Of a DNA stretch of 64,000 nt, positions 4,064 to 40,454 are shown one piece after another (position 1 is the stretch's first letter; each line of letters begins with the position of its first letter). A model generated the notes under the pieces. That model saw nothing but the letters and a program-made list of their open reading frames with translations. It made no database searches and was not told the origin of the DNA. Made by a program: the position numbers and the translations under genes. This DNA comes from an uncultured bacterium (GTDB taxonomy: Bacteria > Bacillota_I > Bacilli_A > RFN20 > CAG-826): the NCBI GenBank assembly GCA_949297445.1, contig CASFSS010000018.1:163884-227883 (forward strand), given 5' to 3'.

Positions 4064-4145
4064 AAAGAGCGTTTGGGACTTCAAAAAAATAATTTAGGCA
4101 AAAAAATCAAATATTCAAAAACTAAGCATTTAGCAGCTAAAAAAT

Positions 4146-4179: not shown

Positions 4180-4218
4180 GTGTGGTAAAATATCCCCGAG
4201 TGATGAAATGAGTTTTTG

Positions 4219-7501: not shown

Positions 7502-7519
7502 TACGGAGGACATTAACAA

Positions 7520-10099: not shown

Positions 10100-11104
10100 A
10101 TGAAAGTTTGCGTATATTTTGAACCAATTCTTAAACGAGATAATTTTGAAGGGGCGCGCCTAAGAAAAAGCATCAAAGGCGCGCTTGAGGCGATTAATAT
10201 ACCATATACAAAAAATATTATTGATAGTTATGACGTCATTCATTTCTTATCGTCGAACGATGAAGCAAAAATAAATGATTCGGTTGAAAATGGTATCCCA
10301 ACAGTCTTTAGCGCTTTATATTGCGAGGGTGATGAAGGGACACGTCTAACTATCTATAACGAAAACAAACATGTTCTTACTTTTAAAGCAAAGCGCATTT
10401 TGGATAGAGTCGATTTAGTTTTTGTTCCTTCAAATAGCGCAAAAGAATTCTTGCTTCAAAATGGTGTGGATAACAACATTGTTGTCTTGCCGGTATGTGT
10501 CAATAAAGAAAGATTTAAAATAAGCGATAAAATTATTGATGGACTATTTTATAGTTATTTCCAAATGCCTCGCGACGCAAAGTATGTGGTGGCAATCGGT
10601 GATTATACGAATAAAAATACAATTACTATTTTGTCATCAATTGCTTCGCTATGTTCTCAATATACTTTTTTCTTCTGTGGTCAAACAAAAAAGAACTCGT
10701 TATATAATATGCGCAAAAAAGTTCCCGACAACTTGCGTCTTAATCCAATCATGAGCGAAGAAATATATCGTTCAATGATGAAAAACGCCTCGCTATATTT
10801 AGCGATTGATAATGAAAAATTTTCGCCAATGTCTTTGTTTGATGCGGCGTGCGCTAAAACACAAATTATTGCTTTGGAACCGCTATTATATAACCGAGAA
10901 ATACTTATTTCTCTCGGAGCAATTGTCGCGACAAATTTAGATGACTTAGCAACAAAAATTATTGAATATATGGATGGGAAAATACCGTCAAACACCAATA
11001 AAGCATATGCATACGCCAATCGGCATTCGTTATTAAAACTAGGTAAAGATTTAGAAAAAAATTATTTGAAAATAATAGATAATAAAAAGGAGAAAACAAT
11101 ATGA
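10100..11104 (+). CDS. Glycosyltransferase family 4 (GT-B) like protein, divergent
   Basis: The C-terminal half resembles the GT4 Glycos_transf_1 fold (VFVPSNSAKEFL..NIVVLPVCVN; the E-x7-E-like EKFSPMSLFDAA). It is translationally coupled to gyrA upstream and serS downstream. Confidence 0.4.
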   Translation: MKVCVYFEPILKRDNFEGARLRKSIKGALEAINIPYTKNIIDSYDVIHFLSSNDEAKINDSVENGIPTVFSALYCEGDEGTRLTIYNENKHVLTFKAKRILDRVDLVFVPSNSAKEFLLQNGVDNNIVVLPVCVNKERFKISDKIIDGLFYSYFQMPRDAKYVVAIGDYTNKNTITILSSIASLCSQYTFFFCGQTKKNSLYNMRKKVPDNLRLNPIMSEEIYRSMMKNASLYLAIDNEKFSPMSLFDAACAKTQIIALEPLLYNREILISLGAIVATNLDDLATKIIEYMDGKIPSNTNKAYAYANRHSLLKLGKDLEKNYLKIIDNKKEKTI

Positions 11105-15471: not shown

Positions 15472-16360
15472 AAACGTTAAAGAGGCTTTGAAAAATGGAT
15501 TACCTATTGTTGCTTTAGAATCGACCATCATATCGCACGGCATGCCCTATCCAAAAAATGTTGAGACAGCTTTACTTGTTGAAGAAGCAATTAAGAAAAA
15601 TGGCGCCGTTCCCGCGACAATTGGCATCATTGACGGCGAGCCAATTGTCGGCATGAGCAAAGAAGAAATTGAACAATTTGGAAAAAGAAAAGGAATCAAA
15701 AAAGTTTCGCGTCGAGACTTGCCGATTGTAATTGCCAAAAAAGAATGGGGAGCGACCACGGTTGCGACAACGATGATATTGGCTAAAAAAGCTGGCATTG
15801 AAGTTTTTGTTACCGGCGGTGTTGGGGGCGCTCATCGAAAAGCTCAACAAACATTTGACATATCGGCTGATTTGGAAGAATTAGCGCAGACTGAAGTCAC
15901 CGTCGTTTGTGCCGGCGTAAAGGCAATTTTAGATCTCCCGTTGACGTTAGAAATTTTGGAAACAAAAGGAGTCACTGTTTTATCGTATCGTAGTGATGAA
16001 TTTGCGGATTTTTATACGCGTCATTCCGGAATTAAGATGGAAAATATCGTTAATACAGCAGAGGAAATTGCCGATGTGATAAAAGCGAAAAGAGCATTTG
16101 ACTTAAAGGGAGGCATTTTAGTTGCCAATCCTATTCCCGAAAAATACGCTATGGATGATAACGTTATTAATGGAGCAATCGAAACAGCTCTTGACGAAGC
16201 GGAAAAACAACATGTTTCTGGAAAGGACGTAACTCCGTTTTTGTTAAAAACCATTGTAGATATTACAAAGGGCGAGTCCCTTGAAGCCAATATTCATTTA
16301 GTGATTAATAACGCAATTTTAGGAGCAGCAATAGCTAAATCATTAGCGGAAAGAAAATGA
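15458..16360 (+). CDS. psuG: Pseudouridine-5'-phosphate glycosidase
   Basis: ALESTIISHGMPYPKN and the following region match the PsuG/YeiN family. Confidence 0.8.
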   Translation: MRIAENVKEALKNGLPIVALESTIISHGMPYPKNVETALLVEEAIKKNGAVPATIGIIDGEPIVGMSKEEIEQFGKRKGIKKVSRRDLPIVIAKKEWGATTVATTMILAKKAGIEVFVTGGVGGAHRKAQQTFDISADLEELAQTEVTVVCAGVKAILDLPLTLEILETKGVTVLSYRSDEFADFYTRHSGIKMENIVNTAEEIADVIKAKRAFDLKGGILVANPIPEKYAMDDNVINGAIETALDEAEKQHVSGKDVTPFLLKTIVDITKGESLEANIHLVINNAILGAAIAKSLAERK

Positions 16361-16890
16361 AAAAAGAAGCAATTTTCAAAAAAGGATTAAAAGAATTAAT
16401 TGAAACATCTTCTTTAGAAGATATTACGGTTGTTTCTTTGTGCGATTATGTCAAATCTAATCGGCAGACATTTTATTATCACTTCCGCGATTTATATGAT
16501 CTTTTAGCGGCTATCATGCTACGCGAACAAATTAATTACCCGTTTAGCGATTTGGCATTTGAAAATATGCATGATGCAATTGTGAAATATATAAATGATA
16601 ATTATCGATTTTTGTCCGAAGTTAAAAAGTCATACGCTGGTGATTTAATTGATAATTTTATCTATTCGTTCATCTATGATAAACTTCAACAATTCTATAA
16701 ATTATATCCGCCGAAAACTGTAAGCAAAGACTACCTATTATCAATGGAGCGTTGTCTTTCAAATGTTCTTTCCCTCGAATATTCTTATCACATTACCGCT
16801 TTAAGAAAAGAAGGCCCACAAAAAATTAAAAAAAGACTAAAAAGAATATGGGATTACTTTACCAAAACTTATTTACAAACTGAATTATGA
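16357..16890 (+). CDS. TetR/AcrR-family transcriptional regulator
   Basis: N-terminal HTH (ITVVSLCDYVKSNRQTFYYHFRDLYDL) with a helical C-terminal domain. It overlaps both neighbours. Confidence 0.6.
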   Translation: MKKEAIFKKGLKELIETSSLEDITVVSLCDYVKSNRQTFYYHFRDLYDLLAAIMLREQINYPFSDLAFENMHDAIVKYINDNYRFLSEVKKSYAGDLIDNFIYSFIYDKLQQFYKLYPPKTVSKDYLLSMERCLSNVLSLEYSYHITALRKEGPQKIKKRLKRIWDYFTKTYLQTEL

Positions 16891-18062
16891 AAGATTTTAC
16901 TTTTTGTTCACCGACAACTATCTATTTTGGACAAAACAAAGAAAATGAGGTTGGCCAAATTATTTTTAACCACGGGATAAGAAAAATTTTAATTGTATAT
17001 GGTTCTAATCGAATCGAGAAATCCGGCCTATTATCTCGGGTAATGTCATCTCTTGATAAATATCAAATTGCCTATAAAACATTAAGTGGCGTAACGCCGA
17101 ATCCCGATGTCAAAAAAGTTAAAGAAGGATTATCAATTATAAAAGCGTGGCCAGTAGAACTAGTTTTGGCTATTGGCGGTGGCTCAGTTATTGATGTCGC
17201 TAAATCTATTGCTTGCAATTTTTATTATTGTGGCGATCCATACGATTTCAATATGAAAGTTGCCTCACCAACTAGAGCGTTAAAAATCGGCGTCATTCTC
17301 ACTTTGGCGGCCTCAGGGAGCGAACTATCGGATTCTTGTGTGATTTCTAATATAGAAACATCGATGAAAGGTGGGTATAATTCGCCATTTAATCGACCAC
17401 TATTTGCCATCATGAATCCTGAATTAACATTGACCGCTTCGACAAAAGACGTCATGGCCGGAGTTGTCGATATAATTTCTCACTCGCTAGAGCGCTATTT
17501 TGCTAGAGGCAAAAAATATGAATTTTCTGAAAATATTGCTTTAGCAATAATAAAAAATACTGTCGAGATAGGAAATGAAATTATTGTAAATCCTAATAAT
17601 TATGAAGCGCGAGCATCGCTCATGTTGAATGGTGCTTTTTCGCATAATGGATTAACCGGTTTAGGCAAAGAATATACTTTTCCGATTCATGCTTTAGAGC
17701 ATCAATTAAGCGCCATCAATCCAAATTTAGCACACGGAGTTGGTTTGGCCATTTTGATACCGGCGTGGATGGAATATGTGTATAACTATGATGTACCAAA
17801 ATTTGCTAGATTTAGTAAAGAGATATTTGATATAAAGGTTGAAAATAGCGTCGAAAATGCTAGAATGGGTATTGTTCGTTTAAAGCAATTCTTTAAGGAA
17901 CTTGGTCTACCAACGACGCTTCGAGAATGTGGCTTTGACGAAAAACAGATCTCCTCAATTAGTGAACGTTTGACAAATGGTGGTACACGTGTGGTTGGCC
18001 AAAACTCTGTCAAACCACTAAACAAAAAAGATATTGCTGCGATTTTCGCAATATGCTTTTAA
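16887..18062 (+). CDS. Iron-containing (group III) alcohol dehydrogenase
   Basis: Fe-ADH fold with the GGGSVIDVAK glycine motif and metal-binding His residues (HALEH...H). Confidence 0.85.
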   Translation: MKDFTFCSPTTIYFGQNKENEVGQIIFNHGIRKILIVYGSNRIEKSGLLSRVMSSLDKYQIAYKTLSGVTPNPDVKKVKEGLSIIKAWPVELVLAIGGGSVIDVAKSIACNFYYCGDPYDFNMKVASPTRALKIGVILTLAASGSELSDSCVISNIETSMKGGYNSPFNRPLFAIMNPELTLTASTKDVMAGVVDIISHSLERYFARGKKYEFSENIALAIIKNTVEIGNEIIVNPNNYEARASLMLNGAFSHNGLTGLGKEYTFPIHALEHQLSAINPNLAHGVGLAILIPAWMEYVYNYDVPKFARFSKEIFDIKVENSVENARMGIVRLKQFFKELGLPTTLRECGFDEKQISSISERLTNGGTRVVGQNSVKPLNKKDIAAIFAICF

Positions 18063-18076
18063 AGGAGTATTTTTTA

Positions 18077-19197
18077 TGAAAAAAGAAGATGTATTATCAA
18101 TCGTTGCCTACTTATTAATGTTTGCAATTGCTTTAATTGTTGGTCTTGTTGTTATACGACCAATGTTTTCCTCGGTTGCTCTTCCAATCAATCCTTATGC
18201 TTTTGTTATCATTGCTATTTTATTAGCCATCATCTTTAATACGGTTATGTTGGAAGTTGGCCATCTTATTGGTGGCAAAATCGGTGGTTATAACATCGTT
18301 TCATTTAATGTTTTATATTTTTGCATTCACAAAGAAAAAAATAAGTGGAGATTCGGTTTTAAGTCTTTTGACGGTTTAAGTGGAGAGACTGTTTTAGCGC
18401 CTAAAAGCGAAAAGGCAAACCCCAAACCATATATTTGGGTTCCTGTCTTCTTCTTTTTATTTGAAATAATTGCCGCTATTTTGCTCTATGTCTTTTCAAC
18501 GATGAATCCAAGCAACGAAGCGTTGGTGGTTTTTGGTTTGGGATCCGTTATCTTTTTAGCTATTGGAGCGATGATTGCTATCTATAACCTTTTCCCCGCA
18601 CGACTTGATTCAATGAATGATGGTTATCGTTTGACTTTATTTAATAAACCCATCAATGTTGTTGCTTATAACGAATTAATGCGCATTGAAAATTTGCAAC
18701 GTGAAGGTAAGCCTATTGAAGAAATTCGTTTCTTTGAAGAAATTACTGATTTTACCGCTTCTTTAAATTTAACATATGTCTATAATTTGTTAGGCAAAAA
18801 AGAATATGATGATGCGATGCTCCTTATCGATAAGATATGCGTGAATCCTTCTGCTATTTCTTCACATACATACGCTCGTTTATTAGCTCAAAAAATATAT
18901 ATAAAATTGATGTCTTGTCCGCTTGAAGAAGCTAAACACTTTTATGAAAACGAAGTTTCCGAACAAATAAAACGTTTCATTTCTAATGATGTTTCAATGG
19001 AATCGGTTCGCGCCTACGTGTTGATTGCTGGTCTTTTAGAAGAATCTAAAGGAGAGGTTCAATATGTCAACTCTCGCAAGGTAAAAGCACTAAAAAGAAC
19101 CCCTGAAGCTAGAGTTGAAGTGGAGCAAGAATTGTACACGGAAGCTTTAAATAAAGTATTAGAAGCACATCCCGATTGGGATTTATCTAAAAATTAA
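18077..19197 (+). CDS. Polytopic membrane protein, possibly a degenerate M50 (site-2 protease) homolog with a C-terminal helical/TPR-like domain
   Basis: ATG at 18077 follows an AAAGGAG RBS. TM helices are present. LEVGH stands where M50 has HExxH, and NLFPARLDSMNDG resembles the M50 NxxPxxxLDG motif. Confidence 0.4.
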
Positions 19198-25074: not shown

Positions 25075-25146
25075 AGAAACAAAATGAAAGCGTTATCAGT
25101 AAAAAAATATTGATATAGTTAATTGCCCGTGTTATCTTATATATGG

Positions 25147-25163: not shown

Positions 25164-25178
25164 GCGATGGAGGTAAAA

Positions 25179-25823
25179 ATGGACGAAAATGTTTCCAACC
25201 GACAACTTGAACGATATCCAATGTATCTTAGTCATTTATTGATGCTAAGTGAAGCCGGTGTCGTCAATATTAGCGCACCGACAATTGCGGCGGCATTGCA
25301 CCTTAACGTCGAGCAGGTTCGTAAAGATTTACAAGCTGTTTCTAGCAGCGAGGGCAAGCCAAAATTTGGTCGCAATGTTGAAGAGTTAATTGCCGATTTA
25401 AAGAAATTTTTAGGCTATAACGAAACGAACAAAGCAATCGTTGTTGGAGTCGGTCATCTGGGACAAGCATTTTTGAATTATTCCGGCTTTACTCGCTATG
25501 GATTAGATATTGTTATGGGTTTTGATATTGATCCTTTGATTGTCGGTAGCGAAATAAACGGGAAACCGATTTATTCACTCGATGAAATTGGTAAATATTT
25601 AGCCGATAGTGATATAAAAATTGCCGTTTTAACAACGCCACAAGGTGTGGCACAAGAAGTCAGCGATGTGCTGACAAAAAATGGCATCCGTGGAATTTGG
25701 AACTTTACTCCTATTCATCTCTCTCATCCTCTTAATGTGGTGGTTGAAGACATGAATTTAGCGAGTTCGCTTGCCAAATTTTCCCATCGTTTGCAGATTT
25801 TATTAAAAAAGGAGAAAAGCTAA
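25179..25823 (+). CDS. rex: Redox-sensing transcriptional repressor Rex
   Basis: N-terminal winged helix plus the Rossmann NADH-binding motif VVGVGHLGQAF. ATG at 25179 follows a GGAGG RBS. Confidence 0.85.
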   Translation: MDENVSNRQLERYPMYLSHLLMLSEAGVVNISAPTIAAALHLNVEQVRKDLQAVSSSEGKPKFGRNVEELIADLKKFLGYNETNKAIVVGVGHLGQAFLNYSGFTRYGLDIVMGFDIDPLIVGSEINGKPIYSLDEIGKYLADSDIKIAVLTTPQGVAQEVSDVLTKNGIRGIWNFTPIHLSHPLNVVVEDMNLASSLAKFSHRLQILLKKEKS

Positions 25824-28441
25824 TGCAAGGACAAATAGTTTCCATTGAAGCTTTTGAAGAAGTTGACAAGCTCGTAAGAAATGGGCAAAAAGCACTCAAT
25901 GAATTTTTGAAACTAAATCAAGAACAAGTCGACTATATTGTTGCAAAGTGTTCGGTTGCTGGTCTTGATCACCATGGGACTTTAGCCGCAATGGCAATTG
26001 AAGAAACGAAACGTGGTGTTTTTGAAGACAAAGCAACAAAAAACTTATTTGCGTGCGAATATGTTGTCAACAATATGCGTCACTTAAAAACAGTTGGTAT
26101 CATTAAAGATGATCCGGTAACTGGTATCACCGAGATTGCTGACCCAATGGGTGTTATCTGTGGAATTACGCCAGTCACCAATCCAACTAGTACCGTTATT
26201 TTTAAATGCTTAATTGCTTTAAAAACACGTAACCCAATTATTTTTTCATTCCATCCTAGCGCCCATGAATGTTCAAAGCGGGCCGCCCAAATTATGTTAG
26301 ATACAGCGGTGGCTGCTGGGGCACCAAAAAATTGTATTCAGTGGATTGAACAAATATCGATGGATGCGACGACCGCATTGATGAATCATACCGGTGTAGC
26401 GACAATTTTGGCTACTGGCGGAAATGCGATGGTTAAAGCTGCTTATAGTTGTGGCAAACCAGCAATGGGTGTCGGTGCTGGTAATGTTCCCGCCTACATT
26501 CATAAAAGCGCCAATGTTGAACAAGCAGTCAATGATATAGTTTCATCGAAATCGTTTGATAATGGTATGGTTTGTGCTTCTGAACAGGCAGCGATTATCG
26601 ACGAAGAAGTTTTTGATGAAGCCATCAATTTGTTTAAACGTTTCAAAGTTTATTTTGTTACACCAGCTGAAAAAACAAAGTTGGAAAAATATATGTTTGG
26701 TTACGCAAAAGGAGACCCAAACATTGAGTTATCACGCCTCAATCCAAAGATTGTTGGTATGTCAGCTCATTTTATTGCTGAACAAGCTGGTTTCTCGGTT
26801 CCTGAAGATACCTCTATTTTGGCTGTTCATTGTAAAACAGTCGGCATCGAAGAACCTTTGTCGCGAGAAAAATTGTCTCCTGTATTAGCAATTTATAAAG
26901 TTAAAGATGAAAAAGAAGGCTTTGACGTGGCCAGCAAATGTGTCGAATTCAATGGATTAGGACATAGTGCTGCTATCCACTGTAAAGAGCAATCTTTGGC
27001 CGACGCTTATGGCGAGCGCTGCAAAGCGATGCGAATTATTTGGAATTCGCCATCTACCTTTGGTGGCATTGGAAATATATATAATTCGTTCTTGCCAAGT
27101 ATGACATTAGGCTGTGGTAGTTATGGAAGAAACTCCATTGGCGGTAATGTCAGTGCAATCAATTTGTTAAATATTAAAAAGGTCGGTAAAAGGAGAAATA
27201 CTATGCAATGGTTTAAAGTACCACGCAAGATATATTTTGAACGCAACTCGATTCAATATTTACAATCTTGCCGCGACATCGAAAAAGTTTTTATTGTCAC
27301 CGATCGCTCGATGGTTGATTTCGGCTATGTTTCTCGTGTGACCGATCAATTAAATATGCGTCGTAACAAAGTTCAAATTCAATTGTTCTGTGATGTTGAG
27401 CCAGATCCAGATATTGAAACCGTTTTGCGCGGTGTTAAATTGATGGACGCATTCCGTCCCGATACAATTATTGCTATCGGCGGTGGTTCCCCAATGGATG
27501 CCGCAAAAGGAATGTGGTTATTCTATGAACATCCAGAAGTTAATTTTGATGATTTGAAACAAAAGTTTATGGATATTCGTAAACGAGCTTTCCGCTATCC
27601 TGAACTTGGTTTAAAATCTAAACTCATTTGTATACCGACAACATCTGGAACTGGTTCAGAAGTTACCCCGTTTGCGGTTATTTCCGACAAAAAGAACAAC
27701 AAGAAGTATCCGTTAACGGATTATTCATTAACACCAACAATTGCTATTGTTGACCCAGAGTTTGTTACCACTTTGCCAGCGCGCCCAACTGCTATTACTG
27801 GTATGGACGTCTTGACGCACGCGATTGAAGCGTATGTGTCTGTTTTGGCAAACGATTACACGGATGGATTAGCCCTTCAAGCAATCAAATTGGTTTTTGA
27901 ATATTTGCCTCGCGCGGTTAAAGATGGTCCACACGATTTAGAAGCACGCGAAAAAATGCATAATGCAGCAACGATTGCCGGTATGGCTTTTGCCAATGCG
28001 TTCTTAGGCATGGCTCACTCGTTAGCCCATAAAATTGGTGGTGAATTCCATACTGTTCATGGTTATACATGTTCCATCGTGTTGCCATATGTTATTCGTT
28101 ATAATGGCACTACCCCAACAAAATTATCTGTTTGGCCAAAATATAACGTTTATAAAGCAGATAAGAAGTATCAAGAAATTGCTAAATTGCTCGGCCTACC
28201 TGCCGCTACTCCCGCCGAAGGAGTAGAATCGCTAGCTAAAGCTGTTAAAAATTTAGCAATCGAAATTGGTCTTGAAACAAGCTTTGAGAAACTCGGTATC
28301 GATGAAAAAGAATGGAATTCTAAAATTGATACTGTGGCGGTCTTAGCTTATGAAGATCAATGTTCACCAGCAAATCCAAGAGTTCCTCTTGTTAAGGATA
28401 TGAAGGAAATTTTAAGAAAGGCTTATAAAGGTATTGATTAA
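25823..28441 (+). CDS. adhE: Bifunctional acetaldehyde-CoA/alcohol dehydrogenase
   Basis: 872 aa. The N-terminal ALDH domain has the catalytic Cys (VCASEQ) and the C-terminal domain is an Fe-ADH with GGGSPMDAAK. Start overlaps the rex stop. Confidence 0.95.
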   Translation: MQGQIVSIEAFEEVDKLVRNGQKALNEFLKLNQEQVDYIVAKCSVAGLDHHGTLAAMAIEETKRGVFEDKATKNLFACEYVVNNMRHLKTVGIIKDDPVTGITEIADPMGVICGITPVTNPTSTVIFKCLIALKTRNPIIFSFHPSAHECSKRAAQIMLDTAVAAGAPKNCIQWIEQISMDATTALMNHTGVATILATGGNAMVKAAYSCGKPAMGVGAGNVPAYIHKSANVEQAVNDIVSSKSFDNGMVCASEQAAIIDEEVFDEAINLFKRFKVYFVTPAEKTKLEKYMFGYAKGDPNIELSRLNPKIVGMSAHFIAEQAGFSVPEDTSILAVHCKTVGIEEPLSREKLSPVLAIYKVKDEKEGFDVASKCVEFNGLGHSAAIHCKEQSLADAYGERCKAMRIIWNSPSTFGGIGNIYNSFLPSMTLGCGSYGRNSIGGNVSAINLLNIKKVGKRRNTMQWFKVPRKIYFERNSIQYLQSCRDIEKVFIVTDRSMVDFGYVSRVTDQLNMRRNKVQIQLFCDVEPDPDIETVLRGVKLMDAFRPDTIIAIGGGSPMDAAKGMWLFYEHPEVNFDDLKQKFMDIRKRAFRYPELGLKSKLICIPTTSGTGSEVTPFAVISDKKNNKKYPLTDYSLTPTIAIVDPEFVTTLPARPTAITGMDVLTHAIEAYVSVLANDYTDGLALQAIKLVFEYLPRAVKDGPHDLEAREKMHNAATIAGMAFANAFLGMAHSLAHKIGGEFHTVHGYTCSIVLPYVIRYNGTTPTKLSVWPKYNVYKADKKYQEIAKLLGLPAATPAEGVESLAKAVKNLAIEIGLETSFEKLGIDEKEWNSKIDTVAVLAYEDQCSPANPRVPLVKDMKEILRKAYKGID

Positions 28442-28692
28442 TGACAGTATTAGTTTGTGTTGGTAGTTCTTGCCATTTAAAAGGAAGTTACGACATTATT
28501 GAATTGATGAAGGCGGCAATTGCCGCCCATCATCTCGAAGATAAAGTAACTCTCAAAGCAACATTTTGCCTCGGCAAATGTGCAATCAGCGGTGTCTGCA
28601 TTAAAGTTGATGATGATATCATCACTGGTGTGACAAAAAACAATTTTGAAGAAGTGTTCAAAACAAATATTCTCGACAAATTAAATTATTAA
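28441..28692 (+). CDS. Thioredoxin-like [2Fe-2S] ferredoxin (NuoE/HndA-like small protein)
   Basis: 83 aa with Cys pattern CVGSSCH...CLGKCAISGVC. It is translationally coupled to adhE (ATTAATG). Confidence 0.65.
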   Translation: MTVLVCVGSSCHLKGSYDIIELMKAAIAAHHLEDKVTLKATFCLGKCAISGVCIKVDDDIITGVTKNNFEEVFKTNILDKLNY

Positions 28693-28713: not shown

Positions 28714-30405
28714 ATGCCATACGCTTTAGAAAGTCGTAAAAATGATTGCCGCAACTGTTATAAATGTATTCGCGGTTGTCCAGTAAAATCGATATCATTT
28801 GGTGATAACAATCAAGCATCTATTATTCATGATGATTGCATTTTATGTGGTCATTGTTTTCTACTTTGTCCACAAGAATGTAAAGAAATTCGTGACGATA
28901 TTTCTAAAGCGAAAGCTCTTATTAAAAGCGGCAAAAAAGTTATTGTATCGCTCGCGCCAAGCTATGTTTCTGGCTACATTAATTGCTCTTTTGAAAACAT
29001 AAAAAAATCATTGCTTCAATTGGGCTTTTATGATGTCGAAGAAACAGCCATTGGCGCGACGATTGTCAAACAAATTTATGATGAAATGGTGGCAAAGGGT
29101 GATCGTGATGTTATTATTTCCACATGCTGCCATAGTGTAAATCTTTTGGTACAAAAGCATTATCCCGATTTGATACCTTGCTTAGCGGATGTTTTATCCC
29201 CTATGCTCGCTCATGCTCGTGATATTAAACTTCGCTACCCGGATTCATACGTCGTATTTATCGGACCTTGCATTGCTAAAAAAGACGAAGCTGACCAAGA
29301 CAAAAATCATTATGTCGATTGTGTCTTAACATACTTAGAACTTGATCGTTGGTTAAAAGAAGACGATATCGTTTTAGAAGAAGACGGCGGAACCAAAATG
29401 CTTGAAAAATCTAAAGCGCGCCTTTTTCCAACGACAGGTGGAATTTTAAACACAATGGAAAAGAATAGTCCCGACTATCAATATTTAGCTGTCGATGGGA
29501 CATTTAATGTCATGGCAGCTTTAGAAGATATTCGAGAAGGCAAGGTTCATAAATGTTTCATCGAAATGTCATCCTGCCCCGGCTCATGTATCAATGGTCC
29601 GGCAGTGGCCACAAGTGCTCGCTCGTTGCTAGCGGGTTATATAAAGGTACACAATGCTTCTGGAAAGCAAGATTTTTCCGTAACAAGCACAAAATATGAT
29701 GATATTGCGGTGAAATTTAGATCAACAGGCGTCTCGAAAGCGCGCCCAAGCGACCTTGACATTCAAAAAGAATTAGTCGATATGGGCAAATATACTAAAA
29801 AGGATGAACTTAATTGTGGTTCTTGTGGATATGACACATGTCGCGAAAAGGCAATTGCCATTTTGGAAGGCAAAGCCATCAAGGAAATGTGTCTACCATT
29901 CTTGATGCAAAAGGCACAAAGTTTCTCCGATAAAGTTATTTTTAATACCCCAAATGGTTTGATGGCTCTTGATGAGAATTTAAATATTCAATTAATTAAT
30001 CCGGCAATGCGACAAATTGTTGGCGTTGCCCATGCTCGTGAGGTAATTGGCAAGAATGTTTCGACCATTCTAGACCCTTCAATTTTTGCCATGGCTCTTA
30101 CAGGCGAAAAAATTCACGCTCGCCGTGATTATTTAAGTGAATACGATAAATACGTCGAAGAAACCGTTGTTTTTGACGAAAAATATCGCGTCTTAATTTC
30201 GATTTTTAGAGACGTAACTCAAGAGCAAAAGAAAATTTTGAAAAAAGAAGAAACGGTCAATAAATCAGTTGATATTACCAATGCTGTTATTGAAAAAAAT
30301 ATGCGTGTCGTTCAGGAAATAGCCTCGTTATTAGGCGAAAGTGCCGCCGAAACAAAAATCGCTCTTTCTTCACTCAAGGATACACTAAAAAATGATGGTG
30401 AGTAA
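28714..30405 (+). CDS. hydS: Putative sensory [FeFe]-hydrogenase with C-terminal PAS domain (HydS / HfsB-like, group C)
   Basis: Two N-terminal 4Fe-4S motifs (CRNCYKCIRGCP, CILCGHCFLLCP). H-cluster motifs are STCCHS (L1 variant), IGPCIAKKDE (L2) and EMSSCPGSCINGP (L3 with Met replaced by Ser, no GGGQP). An extra CGSCGYDTC motif and a PAS-like C-terminal ~130 aa follow. Confidence 0.8.
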   Translation: MPYALESRKNDCRNCYKCIRGCPVKSISFGDNNQASIIHDDCILCGHCFLLCPQECKEIRDDISKAKALIKSGKKVIVSLAPSYVSGYINCSFENIKKSLLQLGFYDVEETAIGATIVKQIYDEMVAKGDRDVIISTCCHSVNLLVQKHYPDLIPCLADVLSPMLAHARDIKLRYPDSYVVFIGPCIAKKDEADQDKNHYVDCVLTYLELDRWLKEDDIVLEEDGGTKMLEKSKARLFPTTGGILNTMEKNSPDYQYLAVDGTFNVMAALEDIREGKVHKCFIEMSSCPGSCINGPAVATSARSLLAGYIKVHNASGKQDFSVTSTKYDDIAVKFRSTGVSKARPSDLDIQKELVDMGKYTKKDELNCGSCGYDTCREKAIAILEGKAIKEMCLPFLMQKAQSFSDKVIFNTPNGLMALDENLNIQLINPAMRQIVGVAHAREVIGKNVSTILDPSIFAMALTGEKIHARRDYLSEYDKYVEETVVFDEKYRVLISIFRDVTQEQKKILKKEETVNKSVDITNAVIEKNMRVVQEIASLLGESAAETKIALSSLKDTLKNDGE

Positions 30406-31573
30406 TCTTATCACGGAAGTTGGCTATCTATCAATCAATCACGACGGTGAAGAACTTTGTGGTGATCATGTTCAACTAATAAACAATAAACAATCGCGGA
30501 CAACCACTCTCGTTTTAGCCGACGGGTTAGGTAGCGGAGTCAAAGCAAATATTTTGAGTACTTTGACGAGCGAAATTCTTTCGACGATGATTGCGAACAA
30601 TTTGCCAATCGATGAGTGTGTTAAAACAATCATGGAAACGTTACCAGTTTGTAAAGTTCGTGGCGTTGCTTATTCCACTTTCACCATTATTCATATATTA
30701 GATTCGCGACAAGCAATAATTTATAATTACGATAATCCACAACCATTTTTAATTAGAAATGGTAAATATCGTCCTCTTGACTGGAGTTCACAAATCATCG
30801 ATGAAAAAACCATCTCTTTTGCCTCTATTTATTTAGTTGAGGGAGACACTTTCTTCTTAATGTCCGATGGCGTCATTCACGCCGGCATTGGAGCGACTTT
30901 GAATTTTGGTTGGGATATTATGAGTGTGATTGACTATGCCGAAGGGCTATTCGACGAAAAATATTCAGCCAAATCGCTCGCGACTTATTTAATTAGTCAC
31001 GTAAATGATTTATACAATGGTCATCCTGGGGATGATGCGACTGTGGCCGCCATCAAAATTCGTCCGCGCAAGCAGGTAAATTTAATGATTGGTCCAGCCT
31101 CGAACCGCGAAGATGATGAAAAAATGCTCTCGCTATTTTTCGCTAAAGAAGGCAAACACATCGTTTGCGGTGGCACTACTTCTCATGTGGTTGCCAATTA
31201 CTTAAAAAAAGAACTCGAATTCCCCCTTGATTATATTGATAAAGAAATACCGCCGACGGCCAAAATTGAGGGTGTGGATTTAGTGACAGAAGGTGTCATC
31301 ACAATCAATAAAGTTTTGCAATACGCCGACAATGTATTCAAGGACAATAGTGATTATTTTACTTGGTCGTTTAAGCAGGATGGAGCCTCACAAATTGCTC
31401 GCCTTTTATTTGAAGAAGCCACCGACATTAACTTTTTTGTCGGTTGTGCGATTAACCCTGCCCACCAACAAGATGGCATTCCAATCAATTTCAATACAAA
31501 AATGCAATTGGTGGATGAATTATCTAAAGCCTTAAAAAAGATGAACAAAAGCATTAAAGTAAGTTATTTTTAA
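30392..31573 (+). CDS. PP2C/SpoIIE-type serine phosphatase with uncharacterised C-terminal domain (HfsC-like)
   Basis: LVLADGLGSGVKANILS and FLMSDGV are PP2C metal-binding Asp motifs. Start overlaps the hydS stop, and the C-terminal ~160 aa has no recognisable motif. Confidence 0.7.
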   Translation: MMVSNLITEVGYLSINHDGEELCGDHVQLINNKQSRTTTLVLADGLGSGVKANILSTLTSEILSTMIANNLPIDECVKTIMETLPVCKVRGVAYSTFTIIHILDSRQAIIYNYDNPQPFLIRNGKYRPLDWSSQIIDEKTISFASIYLVEGDTFFLMSDGVIHAGIGATLNFGWDIMSVIDYAEGLFDEKYSAKSLATYLISHVNDLYNGHPGDDATVAAIKIRPRKQVNLMIGPASNREDDEKMLSLFFAKEGKHIVCGGTTSHVVANYLKKELEFPLDYIDKEIPPTAKIEGVDLVTEGVITINKVLQYADNVFKDNSDYFTWSFKQDGASQIARLLFEEATDINFFVGCAINPAHQQDGIPINFNTKMQLVDELSKALKKMNKSIKVSYF

Positions 31574-31586
31574 TGGAGACAAATTT

Positions 31587-33047
31587 ATGGTAAGCGAAGA
31601 AATTAAAGCAAAATTTGACACGCGTGTACAAGAATTAAAATATCGCGTGCTAAAAGAGGTTGCCCGCTCGTATTTTAATGGTACTTTAATTCAAGATTAT
31701 TCAACTATTCCTGAAAAAATCTCCCCCGGTCCGAAAGCGACGATGCGTTGCTGCATCTATAAAGAGCGCGCCATCGTTTTAGAAAGAATGAAATTAGCTA
31801 CCGGTGGCGATCGAACAAGAAATAATGTCGTACAGGTTTTAAAAATAGCTTGTGATGAATGCCCGTTAGGTGGTTATGAGGTAACTCGCAACTGTCGTGG
31901 TTGTATCGCCCATCGCTGCGAAAAAGCATGCTTTAAAAAAGCCATTACTTTTGATCCGGTTACTCACGCGGCTATCATTGACAAAACAAAATGTGTAAAT
32001 TGCGGGATGTGCGCTAAAGCGTGCCAATATAATGCAATCAATAATTATCGACGTCCTTGCGAAGTTGCCTGCAAGATGAACGCCATTAGTCACGATGAAA
32101 ATTTCGCGGCAGAAATTGATGACGAAAAGTGCATTCAATGTGGACAATGTGTCTATCAATGTCCATTTGGAGCAATTATGGATGTTTCTTATATTACCGA
32201 TGTTATTGACATGCTTAAAGACAGCGATTTTTCAAAAAAATATCATGTTTATGCCGTCATCGCCCCTTCCATTTCTTCACAGTTTAAATATGCGACGCTT
32301 GGTCAAATTATCAAAGCGATTGAAGTGTTAGGTTTTCATAATGTAGTCGAAGCCGCTTTAGGCGCCGATATGGTCGCTTATAAGGAAGCCAAAGAGCTGT
32401 CGGAAAAAGGTTTCTTATTATCGAGTTGTTGTCCGTCTTTTGTATCTTTTGTTGAGAAAAAATTTCCTAAGTTAAAAGAAAGCATTTCAGAGAATTTATC
32501 GCCGATGGCGACAATTGCTCAATATATTAAATCCGTTGACCCAACTGCTAAAGTTGTTTTTATTGGTCCTTGTGTAGCTAAAAAACAAGAGATCAAACGT
32601 CCGAAAGTTGGCGAATATATTGATAGTGTTTTGACCTTTGAGGAATTACAAGCCTTGATTGATGCTAGAGAAATCGATGCCTCTAAATTAGAAGAGTCTA
32701 GTTTGGATAACGCTTCATATTTTGGTCGCATTTTCGCTAGAAGTGGTGGCTTGCATGACGCCGTTAATGAAGCACTTAAAGAACAACATCTTGACTTTAA
32801 TTTGAATGCCGGTGTCGGCGACGGTTTTGACTTATGTCGTCAATTATTATTAAAATGCAATACAGACACTAAACCATTTAATTTTATCGAGGGTATGATT
32901 TGTAGTAACGGCTGCATTGGTGGCCCATGCTGCTTGACGCATGAAGTACGCGATAAAAGTGAAGTGGATAAATATGGCAACGAAGCCAAAGAAAAGACCA
33001 TCGAAGACGCTATCAAATATGTCTATAACGTCACTTCCACTCATTGA
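31587..33047 (+). CDS. hydA: [FeFe]-hydrogenase catalytic subunit (monomeric, ferredoxin-domain N-terminus)
   Basis: H-cluster motifs SSCCPSF (L1), IGPCVAKKQE (L2) and EGMICSNGCIGGPCC (L3). N-terminal Cys clusters are CVNCGMCAKAC and CIQCGQCVYQCP plus extra Cys. Confidence 0.85.
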   Translation: MVSEEIKAKFDTRVQELKYRVLKEVARSYFNGTLIQDYSTIPEKISPGPKATMRCCIYKERAIVLERMKLATGGDRTRNNVVQVLKIACDECPLGGYEVTRNCRGCIAHRCEKACFKKAITFDPVTHAAIIDKTKCVNCGMCAKACQYNAINNYRRPCEVACKMNAISHDENFAAEIDDEKCIQCGQCVYQCPFGAIMDVSYITDVIDMLKDSDFSKKYHVYAVIAPSISSQFKYATLGQIIKAIEVLGFHNVVEAALGADMVAYKEAKELSEKGFLLSSCCPSFVSFVEKKFPKLKESISENLSPMATIAQYIKSVDPTAKVVFIGPCVAKKQEIKRPKVGEYIDSVLTFEELQALIDAREIDASKLEESSLDNASYFGRIFARSGGLHDAVNEALKEQHLDFNLNAGVGDGFDLCRQLLLKCNTDTKPFNFIEGMICSNGCIGGPCCLTHEVRDKSEVDKYGNEAKEKTIEDAIKYVYNVTSTH

Positions 33048-36969: not shown

Positions 36970-39585
36970 ATGAAAAAGTCGCAACGTAAAACACCATATT
37001 TTGATGCCTTAAAAAAATATTTGTCAGTCGAAGTTTCTCCTTTTGATGTGCCAGGACATCATATGGGTAATGTCCCGAACAAATTAAAAACATTAGTTGG
37101 TGAAAATGTTTTTCGTGCGGACGTCAACGCTCCTATCGGCATGGACAATTTAGCCGCTCCTCGCGGCCCGCTTTTAGAGGCACAACGATTGATGGCGGAT
37201 TTTTGTGGAGCGAGTCGGGCTTTTTTCTTAATTAACGGCACAACTTCGGGCATCATTGCGATGATAATGACTGCTTGTCGAGCTAACGACCGAATTATTT
37301 TGCCACGCAACGTTCATAAATCAATTATTAATGCTTTGGTTTTAAGTGGAGCCATTCCGACTTATATTATGCCCCGCTTAGATTCTGAATTAGAGATTGC
37401 CAATCAACCATCGGTAGATGATTACGTTAGGGCAATGAATCGTTATCCGTCCGCTAAAGCTATTTTTGTTATTAATCCAACTTATTTTGGTTCCGTTATT
37501 GATTTGAAGCAATTGGTAGAAATTGCTCACGCACGAGGAATCGCGGTTTTGGTAGATGAAGCGCATGGCGCCCATTATTATTTCAACAAAAATGGTCCGC
37601 TATCAGCTATGGAATGTGGAGCGGATATGTCTAGTGTTTCCTTCCATAAGACAGGTGGCAGTTTGACTCAATCGAGCGTGTTATTATTAAACGAGGGTAT
37701 TTTCTCGCGCCGAGAAATACAAAAAACATTAAATATATTAAATACAACTTCACCTAATACATTGTTGCTTGCTAGTTTAGACACCGCTCGTGAATATGTG
37801 GCTATGCATGGCCAAGCAAACATGAATCGCGTTTTTGAATTAAGTGATTTTGCGAGAGAACAAATTGATAAAATTAAAGGCTTTAAAACAGTTGGCAAAG
37901 ACCATTTTGTAAAATACGGTTCTTACGATTATGACAAAACAAAACTAGTAATCGCGTTAGAACACCTCGACATAAACGGTTTTGAATTATATAAGTTTTT
38001 AAAAGTCGATTATAACATTCAAGTGGAACTAGCCGAGACCTATGTCATTATGGCCATTTTAGCAATCGGTACAAAGAAAAAGCATATTTTAGCTTTAATA
38101 AAAGCGTTAAAAGATATTTCTAGAAAACATTATAAAAAAAGCAATGTTCGCGATGAACATTCGTTTGGAATTGATTTCCCATATATGCTTATGCGACCTC
38201 GTTTGGCCTATCACGCCGATGGGAAAAAAGTGCCATTAGAGAAAGCCGTTAATGAAATTGCTAAAGAGCAATTGATGATTTATCCACCGGGAATACCGCT
38301 AATTGTTCCTGGCGAGGTTTTCACTAAGGAATTAGTGGATCGCATTAAAACATATAAGAAGATGAACGGAACTATATTGAGCGATTATAAAAATGCTGAC
38401 AATGTCAGCGTGATTGACCGTGACAAATGGCAACAATTCCATTTGTTTAAAAACAAACTCAATGACTATTTGATTAAAAAGATTACCACGCCACGAGGCG
38501 ATGATTATGTGATGCCTTTTGAAGGCGAGGCGCACGAAGGAACAATTATTTTACTTCCCTTCCGAAAAGACACCTGGCGAGAAAATGCTAAGCTGGCTCA
38601 AAACGCTTATCGACAAGTTATTATGGCCATCGCTAAATATGAAAAAGTATATGTCGGCATTCATCCCTCAATTTATAATTCCTTGATTGATAGCTATAAA
38701 GATGTTGACAACATCGTTCCTATCAAAATTCGTTATAACGACGCTTGGGCGCGCGACAATTGTCCTATTTTTGTCATCAACAAGGAGAACAAGATGCGTG
38801 CGGTCGATTTTCGCTTTAATGCATGGGGCGGCGAAGTAGATGGTTTATATAACAATTACAAAGAAGACGATTTGATCGCTAAGGCAATGGCAAAATATTT
38901 TGGTGTAGAAAGATATTATTTAGAAAACTTTGTCTTAGAAGGTGGCAGCATCCATGTCGATGGCAAAGGTACTTGTTTGGTGACGGAGGCATGCCTATTG
39001 TCAAACGGTCGTAACCCGCATTTAAACAAATTGCAAATAGAAGAAACCTTAAAAATTTATCTAAATGTTTCTAAAGTTATTTGGTTAAAACACGGTATCT
39101 ATTTAGACGAGACAAACGAGCATGTAGATAATATCGCTTGCTTTGTTCGTCCTGGCGTAATTGCTCTAGCCTGGACAAACGATAAAAATGATCCACAATA
39201 TGAATATTCCCTCTCTTGTTACAACATTTTGAAAAAAGAGCATGATGCGGAAGGCAATCCTTTTAAAATAGTAAAAATTATTAACCCCGAGCCAATATAT
39301 ACGAACAAAGAAGACACGAAAGGAATTCAAGCTGGTCGCTACTCGGCTGTGCCGCGCTTAGTAGGCTCACGCTTAGCGGCTAGTTACATAAATTTCTATC
39401 AAGGTGAAAAGTTTGTCATTATGCCTGGTTTTGGTGTAAAAGAAGATGGTCCGGCCTTAAAAAGAATGAAACGACTATTTCCTGAAAAGGATGTCATCCA
39501 AATCAATTCGCGTGAAATTTTATTAGGCGGTGGAAACATTCATTGCATCACTATGCAAGTGCCTAAAACTCATAAAGGAGAATAA
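36970..39585 (+). CDS. Fused arginine decarboxylase (Orn/Lys/Arg decarboxylase, PLP fold-I, Bacillus SpeA type) and agmatine deiminase
   Basis: Residues 1 to ~490 match Bacillus-type SpeA (FDVPGHHMG...PRNVHKS..SFHKTGGSL). Residues ~510-871 match agmatine deiminase (MPFEGEAHEGT...WARDNCPIFV...GGGNIHCITMQ with catalytic Cys). It is one uninterrupted ORF of 871 aa. Confidence 0.85.
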   Translation: MKKSQRKTPYFDALKKYLSVEVSPFDVPGHHMGNVPNKLKTLVGENVFRADVNAPIGMDNLAAPRGPLLEAQRLMADFCGASRAFFLINGTTSGIIAMIMTACRANDRIILPRNVHKSIINALVLSGAIPTYIMPRLDSELEIANQPSVDDYVRAMNRYPSAKAIFVINPTYFGSVIDLKQLVEIAHARGIAVLVDEAHGAHYYFNKNGPLSAMECGADMSSVSFHKTGGSLTQSSVLLLNEGIFSRREIQKTLNILNTTSPNTLLLASLDTAREYVAMHGQANMNRVFELSDFAREQIDKIKGFKTVGKDHFVKYGSYDYDKTKLVIALEHLDINGFELYKFLKVDYNIQVELAETYVIMAILAIGTKKKHILALIKALKDISRKHYKKSNVRDEHSFGIDFPYMLMRPRLAYHADGKKVPLEKAVNEIAKEQLMIYPPGIPLIVPGEVFTKELVDRIKTYKKMNGTILSDYKNADNVSVIDRDKWQQFHLFKNKLNDYLIKKITTPRGDDYVMPFEGEAHEGTIILLPFRKDTWRENAKLAQNAYRQVIMAIAKYEKVYVGIHPSIYNSLIDSYKDVDNIVPIKIRYNDAWARDNCPIFVINKENKMRAVDFRFNAWGGEVDGLYNNYKEDDLIAKAMAKYFGVERYYLENFVLEGGSIHVDGKGTCLVTEACLLSNGRNPHLNKLQIEETLKIYLNVSKVIWLKHGIYLDETNEHVDNIACFVRPGVIALAWTNDKNDPQYEYSLSCYNILKKEHDAEGNPFKIVKIINPEPIYTNKEDTKGIQAGRYSAVPRLVGSRLAASYINFYQGEKFVIMPGFGVKEDGPALKRMKRLFPEKDVIQINSREILLGGGNIHCITMQVPKTHKGE

Positions 39586-39587
39586 GT

Positions 39588-40454
39588 ATGTCAGTTAAAG
39601 TTGCGATTACACAAATGAGTTGTTCAGCCAATATTCAAGCCAATATCCACAAAGCAATTTCGCTCGTTGAAAAGGCAGCGAAAGAGGGCGCAAACATTAT
39701 TTTGTTACAAGAGTTATTTTCTTCTTTATATTTTTGTCAAGTTGAAGACTATAATAATTTCTCTTTAGCGGAAAACAAAAATGATTCAGCTTTAATAAAA
39801 ACTTTTCAAGAAGTAGCCAAAAAATATAATGTTGTTTTGCCAATTTCCTTTTTTGAAAAAAGCGGAGCTAATTATTTTAATTCCTTAGTTATGATAGATG
39901 CCGATGGAACCAATTTAGGTTTATATCGAAAGATGCATATTCCTACGGGGCAATGCTACGAAGAAAAGTTTTATTTTTCTCCTGGTGATACCGGCTATAA
40001 GATTTTTAAAACTAAATTCGGTAAAATTGGAGTTGGCATTTGCTGGGACCAATGGTTTCCCGAAGTGGCTAGAATTCTCGCTTTAAAAGGCGCGGAATTG
40101 CTTGTCTATCCGACCGCTATCGGCAGTGAACCAGTGTTGGTTAAAGATTCGATGATTCATTGGCGAAACACCATGTGTGGTCATGCTGCCGCTAATATCA
40201 TTCCTCTTTTAGCCTCTAATCGGGTTGGTGTAGAAAGTGTCGCTGGTTCAACCATGACTTTTGGTGGCTATTCTTTTATTGCCAATCAATATGGCGAAGT
40301 TGTGAAAGAATTGTCGAGAGTCGAAGAAGGGTATGCCATATACGAATTTGATTTAGATAGCATCGATAAAGATCGTATTTATTGGGGAGTATTTCGAGAT
40401 AGGCGAATCGATAGTTATTCACCTCTTCTAGAGTATGGAAACGAAGACGAATAA
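39588..40454 (+). CDS. aguB: N-carbamoylputrescine amidohydrolase (nitrilase superfamily)
   Basis: CN-hydrolase catalytic triad context (E in ILLQELF, K in RKMHIP, C in GVGICWDQWFPE). It lies immediately downstream of the deiminase fusion. Confidence 0.85.
   Translation: MSVKVAITQMSCSANIQANIHKAISLVEKAAKEGANIILLQELFSSLYFCQVEDYNNFSLAENKNDSALIKTFQEVAKKYNVVLPISFFEKSGANYFNSLVMIDADGTNLGLYRKMHIPTGQCYEEKFYFSPGDTGYKIFKTKFGKIGVGICWDQWFPEVARILALKGAELLVYPTAIGSEPVLVKDSMIHWRNTMCGHAAANIIPLLASNRVGVESVAGSTMTFGGYSFIANQYGEVVKELSRVEEGYAIYEFDLDSIDKDRIYWGVFRDRRIDSYSPLLEYGNEDE

Follow-up and report, generated by a model that had tools for sequence, protein, structure and literature searches.

A predicted phosphatase-linked group C [FeFe]-hydrogenase of the HydS/HfsB type in a compact rex-adhE-hfs operon of an uncultured gut bacterium

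The described systems closest to the locus reported here are the HydS cluster of Ruminococcus albus and the hfs operon of Thermoanaerobacterium. The eight-gene cluster of R. albus is the most strongly regulated unit, 111-fold down when an H2 consumer is present, and the authors proposed that its group C enzyme senses H2 directly and acts via a phosphatase (PMC6776011). R. albus HydS was classed as group C by Greening et al. (PMC6776011). In published work on Thermoanaerobacterium, HydS and HydA2 are regarded as the counterparts of HfsB and HfsD, respectively, and hfsB and adhE have been shown to be linked in regulation (PMC5707799, PMC11837493). Deletion of hfsA or hfsB in Thermoanaerobacterium raises adhE transcription and ethanol yield (PMC5707799), and deletion of hfsB raises adhE expression and ethanol yield in other genera too (PMC5707799, PMC11837493). 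The group C (M2f) enzyme of Thermotoga maritima, TmHydS, has low activity and an unusually stabilized reduced state (PMC10055695). Here we analyzed a gene of this family, hfsB, located at positions 28714 to 30405 of a 64,000-nucleotide stretch of DNA (the window; GenBank assembly GCA_949297445.1, contig CASFSS010000018.1, positions 163,884 to 227,883), together with the six-gene operon rex-adhE-hfsA-hfsB-hfsC-hfsD that contains it. Its host, unlike R. albus, is an uncultured Bacilli-type organism of the gut with low GC. The boundaries of the hfsB reading frame are exactly those of the initial annotation, in which a model reading the DNA letters had proposed a HydS-like protein with sensory-type H-cluster substitutions.

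As judged from its sequence, HfsB is a group C [FeFe]-hydrogenase of the HfsB/HydS type that is linked to a phosphatase (HydDB C3-like). In plasmid records searched with tblastn, it aligned with HydS on plasmid pRUMAL01 of R. albus 7 at 48.9% identity over 99% of HfsB (E 3e-179). R. albus HydS has the motifs SSCCHS (STCCHS in HfsB), IGPC and FIEMSAC..GSC (EMSSC in HfsB), and the two proteins share the Cx2Cx4Cx16C motif and the C-terminal tail. All six window proteins have R. albus counterparts in the same order at 39 to 61% identity (AdhE 46%, the phosphatase 55%, HydA2 61%, and HfsA 50% and 47% to two ferredoxin genes). The order on pRUMAL01 is Rex, AdhE, a phosphotransferase, two (2Fe-2S) ferredoxin-domain genes, HydS, a SpoIIE phosphatase, and HydA2; the window cluster differs in having no phosphotransferase and one [2Fe-2S] gene instead of two. 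It is also chromosomal, ∼25 kb from dnaA, whereas the R. albus cluster is on a megaplasmid. Compared by description, hfsABCD of Thermoanaerobacterium saccharolyticum and T. thermosaccharolyticum is the same four-gene unit as in the window (a small Fe-S protein, a PAS-containing hydrogenase, a Ser phosphatase, and a ferredoxin-linked hydrogenase), but adhE of T. saccharolyticum (Tsac_0416) lies outside the hfs operon, while in the window rex and adhE join the string. HfsB is thus an ordinary, well-conserved member of the HydS/HfsB family whose gene arrangement has already been described for R. albus. New here are variant details only: the kinase-less six-gene form, a CCH sub-clade, a candidate operator, and a conserved tail.

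The features of hfsB and its product are as follows (CpI is the group A enzyme of Clostridium pasteurianum; AF2, AlphaFold2).

28714 to 30405, plus strand: hfsB, predicted HydS/HfsB-type group C [FeFe]-hydrogenase, open reading frame of 563 amino acids
28738 to 28881, plus strand: two N-terminal CxxCxxCxxxCP [4Fe-4S] motifs (C12, C15, C18, C22; C42, C45, C48, C52)
28933 to 29601, plus strand: H-domain Fe_hyd_lg_C, residues 74 to 296 (PF02906, E 5.5e-48)
29119 to 29136, plus strand: L1 motif STCCHS, residues 136 to 141 (CpI alignment, translation)
29263 to 29289, plus strand: L2 motif GPCIAKKDE (CpI alignment, translation)
29563 to 29601, plus strand: L3 motif EMSSCPGSCINGP, residues 284 to 296 (CpI alignment, translation)
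29815 to 29892, plus strand: Cx2Cx4Cx16C motif of a predicted accessory C-terminal [4Fe-4S] cluster (PF04060)
29938 to 30222, plus strand: PAS domain (PF00989 on the isolated region; AF2 fold)
30223 to 30402, plus strand: C-terminal helical hairpin, residues 504 to 563, core NMRVVQEIASLLGESAAETKIAL (AF2 and conservation)

The cysteine motifs predict that no ligand is missing in HfsB for a complete H-cluster, for two [4Fe-4S] clusters at the N-terminus, or for a further one at the C-terminus. The N-terminus gave Pfam Fer4 dicluster matches, and its eight cysteines are invariant in the alignments. The AF2 model, one of the checks suggested by the initial annotation, has a mean predicted local distance difference test score (pLDDT) of 84.7, and the H-domain is modeled with confidence (pLDDT mostly >90). 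Foldseek searches against the PDB returned only [FeFe]-hydrogenases, with best E values of 1e-22 to 1e-19; no group C or group D structure was among the matches listed. The extra cysteine cluster CGSCGYDTC noted from the sequence was confirmed: C368, C371, C376 and C393 form CGSCGYDTC(x16)C, the sequence CGSCGYDTCREKAIAILEGKAIKEMC fits the Cx2Cx4Cx16C spacing exactly, and the Pfam family PF04060 ("putative Fe-S cluster") matches residues 366 to 395 (E 6.7e-9). The PAS-like C-terminus was likewise supported. A whole-protein Pfam scan gave weak PAS matches at residues 409 to 503, under gathering cutoffs, while the C-terminal region scanned alone scored 24.0 bits with PF00989 against a cutoff of 22.6. 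The AF2 model shows a PAS sheet with flanking helices at residues 410 to 500 (strands 415 to 419, 424 to 428, 467 to 474, 479 to 488, and 493 to 500; pLDDT ∼78 to 90, helices included), and precomputed PAS matches are present on many HfsB relatives.

Residue equivalences to CpI, given in CpI numbering, were taken from a phmmer alignment at ∼18 to 20% identity. The H-cluster ligands are C139 (C300 in CpI), C186 (C355), C288 (C499), and C292 (C503); among other pocket residues, K189 (K358) and an APS motif at residues 81 to 83 (the Pro231/Ser232 equivalents) are retained. In L1, C138 is the Cys299 equivalent, C139 is the ligand Cys300, and H140 stands in place of Pro301. The initial annotation had listed STCCHS among the sensory-type substitutions. 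The string is present, but the CC pair, including the Cys299 equivalent, is intact, and the actual change is Pro301 to His. L2 was missed in that annotation; here Gly184 stands in place of Met353 (GPC, not MPC), with the Cys355 and Lys358 equivalents retained. The description of L3 stood up to the CpI alignment, which places Ser286 at the position of the conserved Met497; the Cys499 and Cys503 equivalents are retained, and the motif ends in NGP and has no GGGQP tail.

The alignment also bears on the proton pathway. Ser319 of CpI corresponds to Ala158 of HfsB, Arg286 to Lys128, and Glu279 to Ile121, while Glu282 is kept as Glu124 and Cys299 as Cys138. In an alternative register, given by an alignment with T. 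kivui HydA1, Gln120 falls at Glu279 and Asp123 at Glu282. The C-terminal region of group A enzymes, in which the proton entry residues His565/His569 have been placed (bioRxiv 10.64898/2026.09.22.753672), is missing from HfsB. Read in this way, the canonical proton relay appears to be interrupted in HfsB, and both methionines framing the diiron site are predicted to be replaced (Gly184 and Ser286).

Conservation was assessed in a close set of the 120 closest database proteins (54 to 100% identity to HfsB) and a diverse set of 132 full-length proteins, each representing a cluster at 50% identity. HMMER was run exhaustively on 1.84 billion cluster representatives and found at least 750 clusters at E ≤ 1e-30; of the best 150, most have a length of ∼550 to 590 amino acids and matched along the whole query. 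Among the 120 relatives there is no or almost no variation in the motifs C-C-H, G-P-C and E-M-S-x-C-x-G-S-C or in the four C-terminal cysteines, and all 16 cluster-ligating cysteines of HfsB are conserved; the eight that belong to the H-cluster and the C-terminal cluster are invariant in 132 of the 132 diverse representatives. Gly occupies the Met353 position in 120/120 relatives and 120/132 diverse representatives, so that this L2 replacement is, on these alignments, the most consistent hallmark of the family. Ser occupies the Met497 position in all 120 relatives, while the diverse set is mixed there (N35, L34, S32, M17). At the Pro301 position, His is found throughout the close set, in which C-C-H is invariant, and Pro predominates in the diverse set (P114, H10); the Cys299 position in that set is A45, C41, S32. 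These frequencies appear to place HfsB in a sub-clade that keeps Cys299 with an invariant His after the CC pair. The substituted residues are invariant in the 120 relatives and are thus under selection, rather than products of decay.

The features common to group C (M2f) and group D (M2e) enzymes are a pair of [4Fe-4S] motifs at the N-terminus, a C-terminal motif, Cx2Cx4Cx16C, and changes at Cys299, Met353 and Met497; a PAS domain is found only in group C (Land et al., PMC8163306). HfsB has all of these group C features except the loss of Cys299. In a published comparison, ∼17% of group C sequences have Cys at position 299, Gly is found at M353 more often than any other residue, and M497 is variable (PMC10055695), and the retention of Cys299 in HfsB therefore does not exclude membership of group C. 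TmHydS, compared by published description, has the same domain order, the same Met353-to-Gly and Met497-to-Ser replacements, and a disrupted proton pathway. It differs in having Ala at the Cys299 position, where HfsB has Cys followed by the His after the CC pair, and the genomic partners of HfsB, a PP2C phosphatase and a group B hydrogenase, are a further difference. Ser267 of TmHydS, the equivalent of Ser286, tunes the potential of [4Fe-4S]H, and restoring Cys at position 131 (A131C) gave no gain in activity (PMC10055695). Group D shares the two N-terminal clusters, the Cx2Cx4Cx16C motif, and alterations at the Cys299, Met353 and Met497 positions, but has no PAS domain and carries Leu at Met497 and Ser at Met353, where HfsB has Ser and Gly. 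CpI and HfsB have in common the H-domain fold (Foldseek E ∼1e-20), the four H-cluster cysteines, the Lys358 and Pro231/Ser232 equivalents, and Cys299, whereas Met353, Met497, Glu279, Ser319 and Pro301 are replaced in HfsB. HfsB further carries an added C-terminal cluster, a PAS domain and the tail.

Placement in the catalytic group A, which the initial annotation had named as an outcome that would overturn its proposal, found no support in the family scores. HfsB scored 91.7 bits with TIGR02512 (cutoff 405.95), 78 with NF040763 (765), and 63.5 with NF040762 (900); with the group B1 model TIGR04105 it scored 201.1 bits (450), so that it falls below every curated NCBIfam hydrogenase cutoff. The group A motifs TSCCPxW, MPCxxK and ExMxCxxGCxxGGGQP are not intact, HfsB having STCCHS, GPC and EMSSC..NGP instead. 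Subgroup C3 is named "phosphatase-linked (putative)" in HydDB, and a SpoIIE/PP2C gene, that is, an adjacent Ser/Thr phosphatase gene, overlaps the 3′ end of hfsB. The architecture, the Gly/Ser pair, the likeness to R. albus HydS and the PP2C neighbor together agree with the proposal of a putative group C enzyme of the sensor type rather than a catalytic one, although "sensory" is still a hypothesis for the whole group C family.

The C-terminal tail is conserved: its core, QMRxxQEIAxLLGETxAETK, is nearly invariant among the 132 diverse representatives, on par with the cofactor motifs. AF2 models two helices (residues 502 to 540 and 544 to 560; pLDDT 43 to 68), and a Pfam scan of the region gave no match. 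We propose that the tail may be an output or docking element. A by-eye likeness to a methyl-accepting chemotaxis protein signaling fragment was also followed and set aside; a profile of 30 tails searched against PDB sequences had a best E value of 1.1, and there was no Pfam match.

The operon consists of six tightly packed genes on the same strand, of which hfsB is the fourth. TAATG overlaps occur twice (rex/adhE and adhE/hfsA), hfsB and hfsC overlap by 14 nucleotides, and the other junctions are gaps of 13 to 21 nucleotides with a ribosome-binding site. The five other genes are as follows.

25167 to 25823, plus strand: rex, redox-sensing (NADH/NAD+) repressor, first gene (NF003994, 232.8 bits against a cutoff of 130)
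25823 to 28441, plus strand: adhE, bifunctional acetaldehyde-CoA/alcohol dehydrogenase (NF010378, 1387.8 against 951 bits)
28441 to 28692, plus strand: hfsA-like gene, thioredoxin-like [2Fe-2S] ferredoxin domain protein of 83 amino acids (PF01257, E 1.2e-8)
30392 to 31573, plus strand: hfsC, SpoIIE/PP2C-type Ser/Thr phosphatase (PF07228, E 2.4e-17)
31587 to 33047, plus strand: hfsD/hydA2-type group B1 monomeric [FeFe]-hydrogenase (TIGR04105, 544.3 against 450 bits)

The Rex protein has the Pfam domains Put_DNA-bind_N and CoA_binding and scores 120 bits to T. ethanolicus Rex (3WG9); its QVRKDL recognition helix is kept and its wing is divergent. The cysteines of HfsA are Cys6, Cys11, Cys43 and Cys47. 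HfsC combines a phosphatase domain (residues 1 to 225) with an alpha/beta C-terminal domain (residues 226 to 393). Its AF2 model has a pLDDT of 86.5, Foldseek returned PP2C/SpoIIE/RsbU phosphatases (E 1e-14), and the metal-binding Asp residues are invariant. The C-terminal domain (window positions 31067 to 31570) is confidently modeled and has many invariant residues, while Pfam and PDB-sequence searches with it gave no match; it could have a substrate- or HfsB-binding role. HfsD is presumed to be the catalytic, ferredoxin-linked H2 producer. Scans for promoters and terminators inside the operon gave counts at or under the shuffle expectation. HydE, HydF and HydG were not found among the window open reading frames scanned, and the H-cluster maturases must therefore be encoded elsewhere in the genome.

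Gene order was compared across 80 loci from genomes of different species, with counts made on the evaluable loci and adhE sought within 5 kb upstream. The phosphatase gene hfsC lies directly 3′ of hfsB in 74/74 evaluable loci, hfsD is downstream of hfsB in 58/68, and adhE is ≤5 kb upstream in 34/67. A [2Fe-2S] partner gene precedes hfsB in most loci, the order A-B-C-D is found in 58 of the 80 species loci, and the full rex-adhE-hfsA-B-C-D string is found in at least 25. A phosphotransferase (kinase-like) gene occurs in 16/80 loci, all of the R. albus (Clostridia) type (L031, L038-L040, L049, L055, L061, L067, L069, L073, L074, L078, and L081-L084). In R. albus (locus L087, positions 6715 to 7464, 249 amino acids) and like loci it lies between adhE (or rex) and the ferredoxin genes. 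Neither the window nor any Bacilli-type six-gene cluster contains it, which leaves the window phosphatase without a dedicated kinase partner in cis. As a side observation, four near-typical Firmicutes-type rex-adhE-hfs clusters (L011, L073, L075 and L081) came from bins labeled Slackia, Myxococcota/Myxococcales or Bacteroidaceae; mis-binned contigs of metagenome-assembled genomes are the likeliest explanation, and horizontal transfer is possible.

We consider it probable that HfsB is a sensor of H2 (or of H2/ferredoxin redox) that controls HfsC to adjust AdhE and HfsD, in an operon also gated by Rex. In such a model, H2 would be bound and slowly split by HfsB, so that the H-cluster's redox state would report the H2 partial pressure. 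This state would be passed to the C-terminal cluster domain, the PAS domain and the helical tail, and from there to HfsC, the PP2C protein encoded by the overlapping next gene. HfsC would dephosphorylate a target protein, and the dephosphorylation would tune how strongly AdhE (an NADH sink yielding ethanol) and HfsD (a ferredoxin sink yielding H2) are expressed or how active they are. The operon would probably be gated too by Rex (NADH/NAD+) and by catabolite control. The data show directly the cofactor sites and substitutions, the order of the domains, the conservation and gene linkage, and that the cluster is orthologous to that of R. albus; the binding of H2, the path of the signal, the substrate and the direction of regulation are what we infer. 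HoxBC of Ralstonia/Cupriavidus, with its PAS-containing kinase HoxJ, offers an analogous logic, in which a low-activity hydrogenase acts through a PAS module and phospho-signaling on hydrogenase genes; its metal site and fold are unrelated, and its output is a histidine kinase/response regulator pair rather than the PP2C phosphatase of the window.

Several points weigh against a sensory role. H2 signal transmission has so far been only inferred for group C enzymes (PMC10055695, PMC6776011, PMC13104023), and both TmHydS and the group D enzyme TamHydS still turn over H2, slowly (PMC8163306, PMC10055695). The C-terminal [4Fe-4S] cluster of TamHydS is not reduced by H2 (PMC13104023), which argues against a simple redox relay via that cluster. 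With its Cys299 equivalent retained and the Glu282 position still acidic, HfsB could be more catalytic than TmHydS, and the E279/E282 register is off by one residue between the two pairwise alignments. The operon and the whole 64-kb window hold no kinase or obvious phospho-substrate, while R. albus-type clusters have the phosphotransferase. The tail is modeled with low confidence. The signs of regulation also conflict: deletion of hfsB raises adhE in T. saccharolyticum, while in the model for R. albus adhE is induced by the sensor when H2 is high.

Three other explanations were weighed against the sensor model. HfsB could sense ferredoxin reduction or the electron supply from HfsA, and not dissolved H2, with the H-cluster acting only as a sink for electrons or as a reference electrode and the output again running through PAS and PP2C. 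Four Fe-S clusters, the dedicated [2Fe-2S] partner that most loci encode upstream, the NADH sensor Rex at the head of the operon, and the C-terminal cluster of TamHydS that does not respond to H2 all fit this explanation. We nevertheless regard it as unlikely, given that a strictly conserved, complete H-cluster site is costly (it takes the HydEFG maturases) and unnecessary for ferredoxin sensing alone, and that the R. albus cluster responds to H2 removal, with stoichiometries matching high versus low H2 (PMC6776011). H2 and ferredoxin are moreover coupled through the enzyme, which makes the H2 and redox readings hard to separate.

It is rather improbable, in our judgment, that HfsB is instead a slow catalytic subunit in a complex with HfsA, HfsC and HfsD, evolving H2 from ferredoxin while the PAS domain merely modulates. 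The cofactor ligands are intact, the Cys299 and acidic Glu282 equivalents are kept, TmHydS and TamHydS have measurable activity, the gene is translationally coupled with those of a [2Fe-2S] protein and a second hydrogenase, and hfsABCD has been termed "the main hydrogenase" of T. saccharolyticum (PMC11837493). In a strain without hfsABCD, however, hfsD alone fills the catalytic role and gives the hfsB-deletion phenotype (PMC11837493), which implies that hfsB is not needed for HfsD function, and adhE transcription is altered by deletion of hfsA or hfsB but not of hfsC or hfsD (PMC5707799). Neither the relay residues Glu279 and Ser319 nor the framing methionines are kept, no activity was gained by TmHydS with the A131C change, and the strict PP2C linkage in 74/74 loci is typical of signaling, not catalysis. 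That hfsB is a decaying paralogue of a catalytic hydrogenase, its motifs altered by relaxed selection, has hardly any probability left. The departures of L1, L2 and L3 from the group A consensus and the missing GGGQP tail would fit decay, but the substituted residues are invariant in the 120 relatives, the 16 ligand cysteines are conserved, full-length homologues with conserved gene order occur in hundreds of species, and an identical HfsB protein is found on 22 contigs; on the alignments, the conservation data effectively refute this explanation.

Two features were read in the 92-nucleotide gap upstream of rex.

25085 to 25098, plus strand: cre-like (CcpA-type) site TGAAAGCGTTATCA, read from the sequence, 5′ of rex
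25094 to 25115, no strand assigned: 22-bp inverted repeat TATCAGTA-AAAAAA-TATTGATA, putative operator

The cre consensus is TGWAANCGNTNWCA, and cre-like sites are found 5′ of rex in many related loci as well. A single promoter-like site, TTGATA-17-TATCTT at 25110 to 25138, lies upstream of rex, and its −35 hexamer is overlapped by the inverted repeat, which has no other zero-mismatch match in the 64-kb window. The core of the repeat, TCRRTA-N5-8-TAYYGA, occurs ≤200 nucleotides 5′ of rex in 20 of the 37 related loci that bear rex. Its density is 2.87 per kb there against 0.010 per kb elsewhere, an enrichment of ∼280-fold relative to the remainder of 1.28 Mb. An inverted repeat of the same type also lies 5′ of R. 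albus rex. Copies lie upstream of rex in loci L009-L063, at 567 to 601 and 6613 to 6646 in L066, and at ∼3280 to 3305 in L087, and in a Christensenella locus the repeat is 5′ of an iron-containing alcohol dehydrogenase gene and of nfnAB-like genes that precede rex-hfsB. The repeat differs from the canonical Rex box (TTGTKAA-N4-TTMACAA) yet shares its 18-bp palindrome geometry. No canonical box was found upstream of the window rex, the 7 found window-wide are at chance level (4.2 expected), and related loci gave no more than sporadic matches upstream of rex. A limited literature search found no description of the TCRRTA-N5-8-TAYYGA repeat.

The repeat could also act as an RNA hairpin, and G-U pairs would form in some imperfect copies. 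The repeat overlaps the −35 hexamer in the window and the transcription start site or 5′ untranslated region in other loci. This variable position with respect to promoter-like sites, together with its self-complementarity as DNA, makes a DNA operator more likely than an RNA hairpin. A joint interpretation, which we offer as tentative, is that the operon is controlled by a Rex subfamily with a non-canonical operator, that the HfsB tail docks the PP2C protein or gives output, and that the kinase-less cluster acts on another phospho-substrate or as a phosphatase-only switch. The operator in this interpretation may be an 18- to 22-bp palindrome, T(A)TCRRTA-N6-TAYYGA(T)A, with the geometry of the classical TTGTGAA-N4-TTCACAA and other half-sites, and the palindrome may mark rex-(adhE/nfnAB)-hfs operons from Bacilli to Clostridia.

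Several other features of the window were recorded. Genes for dnaA, dnaN, recF, gyrB and gyrA occupy positions 1429 to 10096; since this dnaA-gyrA region opens the window, the hfs operon lies ∼25 kb from the presumed replication origin and is co-oriented with replication. A second, stand-alone gene for an iron-containing alcohol dehydrogenase (16887 to 18062, in the interval 15458 to 18062) lies ∼8 kb upstream of the adhE operon. The gene two upstream of it encodes an Indigoidine_A-like protein (pseudouridine-5′-phosphate glycosidase family), with a 177-amino-acid reading frame (16357 to 16890) between the two. This frame and those at 10100 to 11104 (334 amino acids) and 18034 to 19197 (387 amino acids) had no Pfam match at E ≤ 1e-4. 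Positions 36970 to 40454 encode an 871-amino-acid fusion of an Orn/Lys/Arg decarboxylase (OKR_DC_1) with an agmatine deiminase-type PAD_porph domain, followed by a CN_hydrolase (N-carbamoylputrescine amidase-like); the fusion and the hydrolase look like a compact agmatine route to putrescine. The release factor 2 gene prfB (61430 to 62546) directly follows secA and has a programmed +1 frameshift site, CTTTGAC, at 61502 to 61508: a short frame from the ATG at 61430 hits TGA, and the main frame goes on in the +1 frame.

The practical value of the locus is modest. With six genes and no kinase, this compact version could be simpler to reconstitute, the Cys299-keeping clade with its invariant CCH would be useful in structure-function comparison with TmHydS, and the candidate operator could be used for testing operon control. 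Group C hydrogenases are thought to let fermenters gauge H2 and switch between acetate plus H2 and ethanol, and their genes are moderately abundant in human gut metagenomes. The switch between acetate and ethanol shapes gas and metabolites in the gut and rumen and has been exploited in engineering ethanol producers. The locus described here is one more case in which such a putative sensor shares one operon with Rex and with AdhE and a group B hydrogenase, the presumed targets, and it is in line with the existing model, which it leaves unchanged.

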